Shown piece after piece: positions 50,272 to 50,323 of a DNA stretch of 64,000 bases. Origin of the DNA: Staphylococcus phage LY01; the sequence record OR836606.1; one strand, given 5' to 3'. A program made the position numbers and the translations under genes. Every line of letters starts with the position of its first letter. Within the stretch, counting starts at the first letter, position 1. Below the pieces are notes generated by a model. That model was not told the origin of the DNA. It worked only from the letters and a program-made list of their open reading frames with translations, and did not search any database.

Positions 50272-50305
50272 TTAGAGGTAATGACATATAATATGCCATT
50301 ACCTC
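50272..50305. repeat. conserved intergenic hairpin (family consensus TAGAGGTAATGACATATAATATGNCATTACCTCA)
   Basis: Near-identical copies at 25167-25196, 30958-30991, 63952-63985, and variants at 46823-46852, 23211-23244, 39221-39254. Always 3' of the promoter-like motif on the coding (minus) strand. Confidence 0.6.
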
Positions 50306-50323
50306 ATTTTTATAATATATATT
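50306..50323 (-). promoter_or_regulatory. promoter-like motif AAATATATATTATAAAAA (coding strand), exemplar
   Basis: The plus-strand form TTTT(T)ATAATATATAT(T) recurs at 14355-14372, 15275-15292, 17917-17934, 21476-21493, 22850-22867, 25199-25215, 30993-31009, 32722-32738, 39257-39270, 44287-44302, 63556-63573 and 63983-64000. Each lies 10-70 nt upstream of a minus-strand start codon. Confidence 0.45.

Follow-up and report, generated by a model that had tools for sequence, protein, structure and literature searches.

The early promoters of Bacillus phage AR9 have been mapped by dRNA-seq and primer extension to the consensus AAATATATATTAT-(6N)-G+1, and were assigned to the virion RNA polymerase (RNAP) of that phage (Lavysh et al. 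2017, PMC5312081). The same AT-rich motif was found by MEME before 29 genes of phage MarsHill and likewise credited to the virion RNAP (Korn et al., bioRxiv 10.1101/2020.12.14.422802); the words hairpin and terminator have zero occurrences each in the MarsHill text.

The DNA analyzed here, called the window throughout, is a stretch of 64,000 nucleotides (64 kb) from Staphylococcus phage LY01 (record OR836606.1). Its source is a Staphylococcus jumbo phage that is kin to AR9 and PBS1 and has a DNA identity of ~91–92% to Madawaska and MarsHill. Because Korn et al. had predicted the motif in MarsHill, the promoter part of our analysis was already known. Our literature search found no earlier report of a tight hairpin opening most early messages in such phages.

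RNA polymerase genes and the promoter box

The window phage encodes subunits of both a virion and a non-virion RNAP (the orthologs are so annotated in Madawaska, Machias, and SA1), and such a split beta/beta' gene set goes with early promoters of the AR9 type. As in AR9, one of the promoters described below (P4) precedes a non-virion RNAP gene, here that of the beta (C-terminal) subunit, and the virion RNAP beta-N gene is without a box. A Pfam search gave a single RNAP match, below the cutoff (Rpb1 domain 2, in the ORF at 27475–28485), and zero RNAP matches in the other RNAP ORFs that were tested.

We defined a site as AAATATATATTAT with at most one mismatch, followed by 6 nt and a G. By this definition there were 13 sites on the minus (coding) strand (P2 to P14 below, with box ends from 63572 to 14371) versus one antisense chance match, and the box was perfect in six of the 13. 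An additional site, P1, is cut by the end of the window. The sites are listed here with the gene that each would drive, where one was assigned:

63954–64000, minus strand: P1, cut by the window end; partial box 63991–64000 TATATATCAT with one mismatch, spacer AAAAAT, predicted +1 G at 63984
63954–63984, minus strand: P1 hairpin, GAGATAATGACA...TGTCATTATCTC; 115-aa ORF 63584–63931
63523–63572, minus strand: P2; box 63560–63572, 0 mismatches; +1 at 63553; hairpin 63523–63553 (GAAGTTATAGT...); TnpB gene 62341–63483
50275–50324, minus strand: P3; box 50312–50324, 0 mismatches; spacer 50306–50311 AAAAAT; +1 G at 50305
50275–50305, minus strand: P3 hairpin, 14 bp, dG −19; TelA-like gene (start ~50241)
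44258–44304, minus strand: P4; box 44292–44304 AGATATATATTAT; +1 at 44285; hairpin 44258–44285; non-virion RNAP beta (C-terminal) subunit gene
39222–39272, minus strand: P5; box 39260–39272 AAGTATATATTAT; +1 at 39253; hairpin 39222–39253 (GAGACAATG...); ~622-aa gene
32688–32738, minus strand: P6, directly downstream of the NAD-dependent ligase gene; box 32726–32738, 0 mismatches; +1 at 32719; hairpin paired from +3 (32689–32717)
30960–31009, minus strand: P7; box 30997–31009, 0 mismatches; +1 at 30990; hairpin 30960–30990 (GAGGTAATGACA family); 93-aa ORF
25168–25215, minus strand: P8; box 25203–25215 AAATTTATATTAT; +1 at 25196; hairpin 25168–25196 (GAGGTAATGGAT family); 166-aa ORF
23153–23172, minus strand: P9, without +1 hairpin; box 23160–23172; +1 at 23153; 18-nt leader, SD at +4
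22820–22867, minus strand: P10; box 22855–22867 AATTATATATTAT; +1 at 22848; hairpin 22820–22848
21446–21493, minus strand: P11; box 21481–21493 AATTATATATTAT; +1 at 21474; hairpin paired from +3 (21446–21472); small ORF starting at 21418
17892–17934, minus strand: P12; box 17922–17934, 0 mismatches; +1 at 17915; AT-rich hairpin 17892–17915; 172-aa ORF
15273–15292, minus strand: P13, without hairpin; box 15280–15292, 0 mismatches; +1 at 15273; 33-nt leader as in AR9
14325–14371, minus strand: P14; box 14359–14371 AATTATATATTAT; +1 at 14352; hairpin 14325–14352

Chance AT-richness was ruled out as the source of these matches by shuffling, strand bias, and the restriction of the boxes to intergenic DNA. 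The 17-mer AAATATATATTATAAAA has 13 matches at up to two mismatches, 12 of them on the minus strand, versus 3.2 ± 1.7 (maximum 8) in shuffled sequence, and its core ATATATTATAA is present in 14 minus-strand copies versus 0 on the plus strand. The plus-strand block at 1–9.7 kb contains no promoter sites. Twelve of the 13 boxes are outside any maximal ORF, in a block of which only 13% is non-ORF, and the thirteenth falls within a spurious 5' extension of an ORF. These counts bear out the first-pass annotation, which had reported a coding-strand motif at 13 or more intergenic sites, judged it too conserved for chance AT-richness, and named an equal frequency inside coding regions as grounds for abandoning it; the position it gave for P3, 50272–50323, was correct to within 1–3 nt.

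The predicted start, a G six nt after the box, is preceded by T at −1 in 13/13 window sites; clade-wide, G occupies +1 in 41/41 cases and T occupies −1 in 40/41. The spacer is an A-rich 6 nt ending in T, and T is also favored at −20 to −22. The box variants of the window (AATT.., AAATTT.., AGAT.., AAGT..) are all present among the annotated AR9 early promoters. The earlier suggestion of a class of phage promoters, perhaps for a phage RNAP, thus fits well, as the box is base for base the AR9 early consensus and virion RNAP genes are encoded. The sites are very probably AR9-type early promoters read by the virion RNAP, which is the putative polymerase on grounds of homology; the +1 positions are predictions taken from the AR9 spacing.

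Hairpins at the predicted start site

A hairpin of some kind was found at 12 of the 14 sites (edge site counted), starting exactly at the predicted +1 G in 11 and at +3 in one. For the 13 complete sites the figures are ten hairpins from +1, one from +3, and two sites with none, and dG ranges from −5 to −19 kcal/mol. Given the predicted +1, the hairpins would lie within ~0–2 nt of the 5' end, as in known 5' stem-loop stabilizers. At random G positions on the same strand an equally strong hairpin started at the G in 3.7% of cases, compared with 9/13 promoter sites (p ~7e-11). The stems are of 10–14 bp, and the stem-loops would span the first 24–33 transcribed nt.

The near-identical GAGGTAATG palindrome is present at only 4/14 sites, and the other hairpins conserve structure, not sequence. 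The 34-nt consensus quoted in the first-pass annotation has three matches at up to three mismatches (30958, 50273, and 63952), plus a copy with a shorter loop at 25168–25196. That annotation was right that such a palindrome exists, but it had placed it at about half of the sites and spoken of one dispersed family of near-identical copies, which overstated its extent. Among its examples, those at 30958, 25167, and 63952 carry the palindrome, whereas those at 17893, 39221, and 44258 have hairpins of different or merely related sequence. Its placement of the hairpin in the 5' UTR agrees with our analysis: with AR9 spacing, every hairpin would be in the 5' UTR, nearly always from the first nucleotide. 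A subset of hairpins, comprising promoter-linked and promoter-less copies in six phages, shares the motif GAGRTAATGA... and a conserved TAATATATT tail.

Hairpins of varied sequence at the same place in 12/14 sites had gone unmentioned in the first-pass annotation.

The RBS and ATG that had been noted downstream were found, with the SD and start codon 18–70 nt after the predicted start. Leaders were 45–70 nt in length with a hairpin and 18–38 nt without one. In all leaders the SD is outside the hairpin, which rules out its sequestration. Behind the +1 stems the next 8 nt average 3.2 T and 4.6 A, and no T run exceeds two in 28/42; no U-tract of the kind that defines an intrinsic terminator was found behind the +1 hairpins.

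A known RNA family was ruled out as the identity of the hairpin, because Rfam 15 gave 0 matches across the whole window at gathering thresholds and, in a search of 50200–51100, none on the cassette at E ≤1. An exact-pattern scan of IMG/VR returned no copy, and a search through 185,579 genomes of bacterial species gave two isolated matches, both in MAGs of unrelated origin, with Staphylococcus giving none, which rules out a host-derived or widespread repeat.

Across six Staphylococcus jumbo phages, with 43–50 kb of each relative's genome counted, a +1 hairpin was present at 41/55 motif matches and a +3 hairpin at three; six of the remaining matches are intragenic or antisense chance matches. 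Promoters without a palindrome number two to five per phage. There were 38 distinct stem sequences, in which the first 8 stem positions had 144/144 canonical pairs, with 2–4 pair types each, compared with 89.7 ± 4.8 in shuffled stems, a figure that is partly circular because the covariation set was picked by folding energy. Pairs were counted positionally by a script; in a MAFFT alignment the trimmed stems were gapped and their register was lost. Individual promoters illustrate the pattern: in the P4 orthologs one pair appears as G·U, U-A, G-C, and A-U and another as G-C, G·U, and A-U, and the P1 stem differs from its Madawaska ortholog by a compensatory change of G-C to A-U.

The stems contain 33 G·U pairs versus one A·C, and in 28/38 stems folding is more stable on the sense than on the antisense strand (p = 5e-5). 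Since the stems covary and accept G·U but not A·C, selection appears to act on the sense RNA, and on its structure rather than its sequence, as would be expected of a stabilizer. We consider it likely, based on this pattern of substitution, that the transcribed 5' hairpin is under selection at the RNA level.

Possible functions of the hairpins

We propose that the sites are early promoters for the virion RNAP at which a flush 5' stem-loop would protect early mRNA from decay that depends on the 5' end. Taken whole, this proposal has in our judgment about an even chance of being correct. The 13-nt box, the A-rich spacer ending in T, and a start at G would be read by the virion-borne multisubunit RNAP, and in the Staphylococcus clade the first 24–33 nt of most early transcripts would form a perfect stem-loop. 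Because the closing pair includes the +1 G, early mRNA would have its 5' end fully paired from the outset. The likeliest job of the stem-loop may be 5'-end protection: a flush hairpin would withhold a single-stranded 5' end from RppH, from the 5'-to-3' exonuclease RNase J1/J2, and from RNase Y, which is stimulated by the 5' end. The unpaired SD is 20–30 nt beyond the hairpin, so translation would not be blocked. At the hairpin-less promoters the leaders are so short that the initiating ribosome itself would be near the 5' end. We infer a stabilizing function for the +1 hairpin, and the 'stabiliser or operator' role put forward in the first-pass annotation has the same standing. A 5' stem-loop has been reported to shield the processed cspA mRNA of S. 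aureus from RNase J (PMC4419217). Counting against stabilization is that AR9 copes without hairpins although its host has the same RNases.

Hairpins of the same sequence family are also found without a box after genes. There are six in the window:

62090–62119, minus strand: promoter-less family hairpin GGGTAATGATC..., downstream of the TnpB gene; ortholog annotated 'terminator' in Madawaska
52759–52786, minus strand: promoter-less hairpin GGGAGATGACA..., upstream of the virion-RNAP beta-N gene
46826–46856, minus strand: imperfect family hairpin GAGGCAATGACA...TGTCATTACTC; no box (6/13 mismatches at the box position)
39903–39934, minus strand: promoter-less family hairpin GGAGTAATGATT..., right behind a stop codon; two sense-strand U·G pairs
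26977–27006, minus strand: promoter-less family hairpin GGAATAACGGTC..., behind a stop codon
23213–23242, minus strand: promoter-less family hairpin GGATAATGATC..., right behind a stop codon; T10 run 12 nt later, then P9, which has this hairpin upstream of its box instead of one at +1

The late-promoter motif AACA-N6-T-R was absent from the sequences inspected upstream of the promoter-less hairpins. The stop codon that closes the last exon of the virion-RNAP beta-N gene lies 2 nt before the start of P3. At that stop codon, both the window and S6 have hairpin plus box, and Madawaska has the hairpin but no box. The box-less ortholog of the P3 hairpin therefore indicates a role for the hairpin, be it the only one or an additional one, that does not depend on a start site.

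These copies bring in the idea that the hairpins are terminators or attenuators, which would stop upstream polymerases, and perhaps some of the promoters' own transcripts, and insulate each early gene, the overlap with +1 being incidental compaction. We regard this as rather unlikely. It would account for hairpins directly behind stop codons, for family copies that follow genes without a promoter, and for the retention of the hairpin at the end of the virion-RNAP gene with or without a box; the GenBank records of Madawaska and Machias label several of these hairpins 'terminator', a simple scan marks 50275–50305 and others as terminator-like, and premature termination in 5' UTRs has been reported in jumbo phage 201phi2-1 (PMC11512511). 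However, the U-tract is missing behind the +1 hairpins even though other window hairpins have T runs, and a terminator past +1 would cut short the transcripts of the promoter itself too. Termination would also leave unexplained the single-nucleotide registration with +1 at 41 sites with unrelated stem sequences. In addition, relatives with the space for it carry a separate hairpin before the box besides the one at +1: in four relatives a single intergenic region has the order hairpin, box, hairpin, which suggests that the +1 hairpin is not merely the terminator of the upstream gene.

It is also doubtful, though compatible with the other explanations, that box and hairpin are mainly a recombination cassette whose repeats provide homology for the swapping, insertion, or deletion of early genes. 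The precedent is the PeSL cassettes of the T4-type phages RB49/phi1, T4/PST, and KVP40/nt-1 (PMC2839356, PMC4122927). In comparisons with Madawaska, S6, Machias, SA1, and AH12, the ends of collinear blocks were at or within 40 nt of P1, P2, P3, P6, and P7 and of three promoter-less hairpins. All five relatives have 2–12 kb of extra genes at P3, and the gene behind P2 is TnpB here and a 113-aa ORF in Madawaska. Breakpoints in intergenic DNA are to be expected anyway, however, and the junctions at P3 and P7 fall within the leader/SD region rather than between two copies of the cassette. Recombination would, moreover, leave the RNA-level selection on the stems unexplained.

The hairpins, especially those of the GAGGTAATG family, could alternatively be sites for a trans-acting factor, either a double-strand-specific RNase of phage or host (T7 and SP82 have RNase III sites between their early genes) or a regulator that binds RNA and sets the timing of the early genes. 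The subset with shared sequence and structure in six phages speaks for such a factor, and processing of 5' UTR hairpins by S. aureus RNase III is known (PMC4419217). We nonetheless find this improbable: most +1 hairpins are unrelated in sequence, so that sequence-specific recognition cannot be general, and no candidate protein was found. The stems seen here are also shorter than the usual RNase III substrate of about two helical turns.

More speculatively, the flush 5' stem-loop might be a 'self' mark. The phage, or a phage-encoded nuclease for host shutoff, would attack RNAs with free 5' ends, and early messages, paired at +1, would escape. Whether or not a box accompanies it, the module would also serve as the 3' terminus of the message before it and as a transferable joint for early-gene exchange. 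If this were true, which we think quite improbable, the Staphylococcus AR9-like phages would have a cassette of their own that combines promoter, RNA end, and recombination.

A host promoter was ruled out for the box. It is very improbable that it is an extended −10 element for the host sigma-A RNAP rather than a target of the phage enzyme, because, although TATTAT at −12 to −7 of the predicted start has the position of a −10 hexamer, there is no −35 partner or TG extension (−20 to −22 is T), the conserved 13 nt plus −1/+1 far exceed a −10 element and are identical to the AR9 virion-RNAP motif, and sigma-70-like sites are not enriched in the window (142 versus 167 expected).

Scarcely credible, finally, is action in the DNA, whether the virion RNAP recognizes an extruded hairpin or cruciform, like that of phage N4, or the palindromes terminate antisense transcription: they do adjoin the promoter, and the complement of the A-rich spacer, ATTTTTAT, follows each of them on the opposite strand, but the asymmetry between G·U and A·C rules this out, as it means that antisense RNA and DNA forms are mismatched where sense RNA pairs, and the palindrome is missing at several promoters per phage and from AR9 entirely.

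Overall, the promoter itself adds little, as it extends the mapped AR9 motif within a clade where it was already predicted. The +1 stem-loop, by comparison, is a clean clade-wide contrast to AR9. It predicts precisely where early mRNAs start and how their 5' ends fold, for a virion RNAP that works without sigma and is poorly understood, and it suggests how the phage may guard its first messages in a host dominated by 5'-to-3' RNA decay. It also cautions annotators against the label 'terminator' in these genomes, since the hairpins so labeled are probably 5' leaders. The ~50-nt cassette is also a possible portable expression element, should the virion polymerase become tractable.

Comparison with known systems

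Phage N4 resembles the window phage in having a virion-carried RNAP and a palindrome at its early promoters. The N4 hairpins, however, form in DNA upstream of the start site and are needed for recognition, whereas the window palindrome is predicted to be transcribed, is optional, and appears to be selected at the RNA level.

The PeSL cassettes also differ from the arrangement described here. Their promoters are of the sigma-70 type and used by host RNAP, and the window boxes, without a −35, are not of that type. Their stem-loop is between the −35 and −10 boxes or over the −10 box, so that it is absent from the new transcript (PMC2839356), and it was shown to terminate transcription; the window stem-loop starts at +1 and is not followed by a U-tract. 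Intrinsic terminators are similar in that a stable hairpin is found right behind a stop codon, and the promoter-less window copies have T runs nearby. They differ in that the +1 hairpins are downstream of a promoter and are followed by mixed A/T sequence.

AR9 and PBS1 share with the window phage the same 13-nt box, 6-nt spacer, and G start, as well as variant boxes, co-orientation, and an intergenic position; they likewise combine genes for two RNAPs, and a non-virion one is placed behind an early promoter. Unlike AR9, the window clade has a constrained A-rich spacer, T at −1, a preference for T at −20 to −22, and a +1 stem-loop of 24–33 nt. AR9 leaders are ~30–40 nt and unstructured, with a 5' hairpin at 0/17 annotated early promoters, which rules out the +1 hairpin as a general trait of AR9-like phages. 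Start sites were mapped experimentally in AR9 and are predicted here from the sequence.

Stem-loops at the 5' terminus stabilize the leaders of E. coli ompA, B. subtilis aprE and ermC, and T7 gene 10. The window leaders resemble these in having a stable hairpin with almost no unpaired 5' nucleotides, followed by an accessible SD, and the host of the window phage has the RNase J/RppH/RNase Y decay system that such hairpins oppose. Known 5' stabilizers, however, belong to single genes; in this clade the arrangement, with its presumed stabilizing effect, is systematic in a whole promoter class of a phage-encoded polymerase.

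Probable early promoters of the AR9 type

The motif that recurs upstream of minus-strand genes in the window was found well above chance. A 17-mer version allowing ≤2 mismatches had 13 matches (12 coding-strand, one on the other strand) versus 3.2 ± 1.7 in shuffles, and its core, ATATATTATAA, was distributed 14:0 between the coding strand and the other. When a site was defined as the 13-nt box (≤1 mismatch) followed by six nucleotides and a G, there were 13 coding-strand sites and one antisense match without gene context, and a fourteenth site is cut by the window end (sites are numbered P1 to P14 downward from that end). 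At P3 (50275-50324) the coding strand reads gaaTAA-t-AAATATATATTAT-AAAAAT-GAGGTAATGGCATAT-TAT-ATATGTCATTACCTC-TAATATATTTAAATAATAGGAGATGAATTGGATATG. Twelve of the 13 sites lie outside every maximal ORF, although the non-ORF share of the block is only 13%, and the remaining site falls in a spurious 5' ORF extension. Based on these match counts, the coding-strand bias and the non-ORF placement, the motif described in the first-pass annotation is confirmed, and it is not equally frequent inside coding regions.

The window has a G+C content of ~24%, and its strand asymmetry reverses near 10 kb; from 9.7 kb on, nearly all ORFs are on the minus strand. An ORF at 9711-10235 (minus strand), mostly degenerate repeats that encode Ser/Asp/Glu (plus strand, TCTTCATCATCAGATTC...), sits where the plus-strand gene block meets the minus-strand block. 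The megablast relatives are Staphylococcus jumbo phages (Madawaska, 91%; MarsHill, 92%; further S6, PALS_2, Machias, PB50, SA1 and AH12). Their records and papers ascribe to these phages kinship with Bacillus phage AR9/PBS1, DNA that contains uracil, and a pair of multisubunit RNA polymerases of which only one is packaged in the virion.

In AR9, 41 early transcription start sites were mapped by dRNA-seq and primer extension by Lavysh et al. (PMC5312081). The early consensus is AAATATATATTAT-(6N)-G+1, and early transcription, which is independent of protein synthesis, was ascribed to the injected virion RNAP (PMC5312081). The window motif is identical to this consensus in sequence and spacing, and every variant box of the window is also present among annotated AR9 early promoters. 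The regulatory logic is also as in AR9, with P4 ahead of the non-virion RNAP beta gene and no box ahead of the virion RNAP beta-N gene in the window. The promoter is therefore of a known kind, and the proposal of a phage promoter class, perhaps for the phage RNAP, is borne out: these are very probably AR9-type virion-RNAP early promoters. A sigma-70 reading finds no support: the boxes lack a -35 partner, and sequences resembling sigma-70 promoters are rarer than in shuffles. This same promoter has already been predicted in the Staphylococcus jumbo phage clade. The clade consensus is tighter than that of AR9, with T favoured at -22 to -20, an A-rich spacer, T at -1 in 40/41 and G at +1 in 41/41.

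A stem-loop registered at the predicted start

We placed +1 by the AR9 spacing and computed the fold of the 45 nt that begin every predicted transcript. The first paired base was the predicted +1 G in 10 of 13 window sites; the hairpin started at +3 in one, and two had none. The window-edge site also has a hairpin from its predicted +1. A control using random G residues on the same strand (dG ≤ -7, first paired base that G) gave 3.7%, versus 9/13 promoter sites (p ~7e-11). In the window plus 43-50 kb from each of five relatives, the hairpin began at +1 for 41 of 55 motif matches and at +3 for three; of the other eleven, six are intragenic or antisense chance matches. The hairpin description in the first-pass annotation holds only in part: a hairpin follows the motif at most sites, but the near-identical sequence reported for about half of the sites is present at only 4 of 14. 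Three sequences match the 34-nt consensus given there (≤3 mismatches), a shorter-loop copy lies at 25168-25196, and several of the hairpins cited as examples differ in sequence. Overall, the original observation holds for the most part, and the evidence supports its interpretation. A conserved tail, TAATAT(A/T)(T/A)T, which does not form a U-tract, follows the family-A hairpins:

50266-50274, 30951-30959, 25159-25167 and 63945-63953 (minus strand), family-A hairpin tails

No +1 hairpin was found at any of 17 annotated AR9 early promoters. The early leaders of AR9 are ~30-40 nt and unstructured, whereas the predicted leaders of the Staphylococcus jumbo phages mostly begin with a hairpin. The structure of the +1 stem-loop is conserved across this Staphylococcus clade, AR9 lacks it, and in the literature searched we found no earlier mention of a stem-loop fused at +1 to most of these promoters. 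The hairpin matched no Rfam family and had no copies in IMG/VR; bacterial genomes gave only two isolated matches, in unrelated MAGs.

The 44 hairpins represent 38 distinct sequences, and stem positions 1 to 8 each show two to four pair types. All 144 of 144 cells were canonical, versus 89.7 ± 4.8 with the 3' partners shuffled, a comparison that is partly circular as the set was chosen by folding energy. At the non-virion RNAP beta promoter, one pair is G·U in the window, U-A in Madawaska and S6, G-C in SA1 and A-U in AH12, and another is G-C, G·U or A-U among orthologs; these series are classical compensatory change. Compared with its ortholog in Madawaska, the edge copy shows a double change, G-C to A-U. 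G·U pairs number 33 in the stems, against a single position at which the complementary strand would pair G·U, where a ratio of ~1.3:1 is expected from base composition alone. For 28 of the 38 sequences the sense fold was the more stable (p = 5e-5, Wilcoxon). The +1 stem-loop is under selection in the sense RNA, and the G·U excess and more stable sense fold argue against DNA cruciforms and antisense terminators, both of which we rejected.

Possible roles of the hairpin

In Firmicute RNA decay, RppH requires unpaired 5' nucleotides, RNase J1/J2 requires a free 5' end, and a 5' monophosphate stimulates RNase Y. With its 5'-triphosphate G held in the closing pair, G-C or G·U, the transcript would have no single-stranded 5' end, and the flush stem-loop may act as a 5' stabiliser of early mRNA. 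Protection from RNase J by a 5' stem-loop has been reported for S. aureus cspA mRNA (PMC4419217). The SD, 20-30 nt past the +1 hairpin, takes no part in its pairing. Leaders are 45-70 nt with the hairpin versus 18-38 nt in the few without it; the latter put the SD, and with it an initiating ribosome, near the 5' end, as in AR9. This pattern fits 5' protection. In form, the Staphylococcus leaders resemble those of AR9 with ~30 nt of stem-loop placed in front. Several unrelated early genes have in common a near-identical translation-initiation region, AGGAGATGAATTnGATATG:

50241-50260 (P3), 15240-15257 (P13) and 25134-25150 (P8), copies of the shared leader

A live alternative is that the hairpin is a 3'-end structure or terminator of the upstream message. 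This is the simplest account of hairpins of the promoter-linked sequence family (GGnTAATGAyC...) that lie just past stop codons without a box. The window has six such hairpins, of which one is imperfect and some have a T run 8-12 nt downstream:

62090-62119, 52759-52786, 46826-46856, 39903-39934, 26977-27006 and 23213-23242 (minus strand), promoter-less family hairpins

In the Madawaska and Machias records several hairpins, promoter-less family members included, are labelled "regulatory: terminator". At the virion-RNAP beta-N stop codon there is a box plus hairpin in the window, S6 and probably Machias, and in Madawaska a hairpin with compensatory changes and no box, which indicates a use that needs no start site. 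As the sole role, however, termination is opposed by the lack of a U-tract after the +1 hairpins (the next 8 nt average 3.2 T and 4.6 A), by their placement past +1, where they would abort the promoter's own transcripts, and by single-nucleotide registration with +1 among unrelated stems. It is also opposed by a hairpin - box - hairpin arrangement, conserved in four relatives, in which two tandem family hairpins, the second at +1, share one intergenic region:

Madawaska, L001 23069-23175
S6, L006 31273-31349
Machias, L003 28879-28935
AH12, L005 19146-19202

This arrangement suggests one kind of module with two distinct jobs. By the AR9 spacing, promoter-linked copies of the "terminator"-labelled family would be 5' leaders of early transcripts. 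A recognition site for a sequence-specific factor, for example an RNA-binding regulator or an enzyme of the RNase III type, is also a live alternative that could account for the conserved subfamily with its tail, TAATATATT, but it leaves the sequence-diverse majority of hairpins unexplained. For the +1 stem-loop, 5' stabilisation is the best-supported guess, and we give it an even chance of being correct.

Mobile elements, genome plasticity and known cassettes

Two TnpB genes (IS605 OrfB / Cas12f1-like) were present in the window of this lytic jumbo phage, along with small group I intron-like elements (about 90-180 nt) inside split RNAP genes:

62341-63483 (minus strand), TnpB gene directly behind early promoter P2
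53824-55044 (minus strand), TnpB gene flanked by a ~190-nt segment at 53616-53807 that recurs inverted at 2320-2611 and 4516-4800
40394-40569, 40590-40759, 40788-40967, 40973-41152, 41722-41814, 50690-50865 and 50888-51030 (minus strand), intron-like elements
27369-27453 and 60031-60140, repeats related to the intron-like elements

The ~190-nt repeats could be element ends or guide-RNA regions. The intron-like elements score just under the Rfam gathering threshold (best 48 and 46 bits versus 50; E 6e-11 to 0.59), and four are in tandem; the gaps of only ~5-30 nt between them imply that they are degenerate copies or that there are micro-exons. At 61182-62000 (minus strand) there is a metallo-beta-lactamase-fold protein, annotated as RNase Z-like in Madawaska, for which Pfam gives a below-cutoff match to Apyc1, an anti-Pycsar nuclease (E = 3e-7, 30.5 bits, cutoff 50).

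Comparison of the window with five relatives placed the ends of collinear blocks repeatedly at P1, P2, P3, P6 and P7, and also at three promoter-less hairpins. At P3, all five relatives have 2-12 kb of extra small genes between the virion-RNAP and TelA-like genes, and the gene downstream of P2 is TnpB in the window versus a 113-aa ORF in Madawaska. The rearrangement junction at P3 versus S6 falls within the shared AGGAGATGAATTnGATATG leader. As two junctions are in the leader, not between cassette copies, we keep the coincidence of block ends and cassettes (box, spacer and hairpin) as an observation, not a mechanism. It brings to mind the PeSL cassettes of T4-type phages (PMC2839356, PMC4122927). 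However, PeSL promoters are of the sigma-70 type, unlike the AR9-type boxes of the window, and PeSL stem-loops lie inside the promoter and terminate transcription, whereas the window hairpins instead run from the predicted +1.
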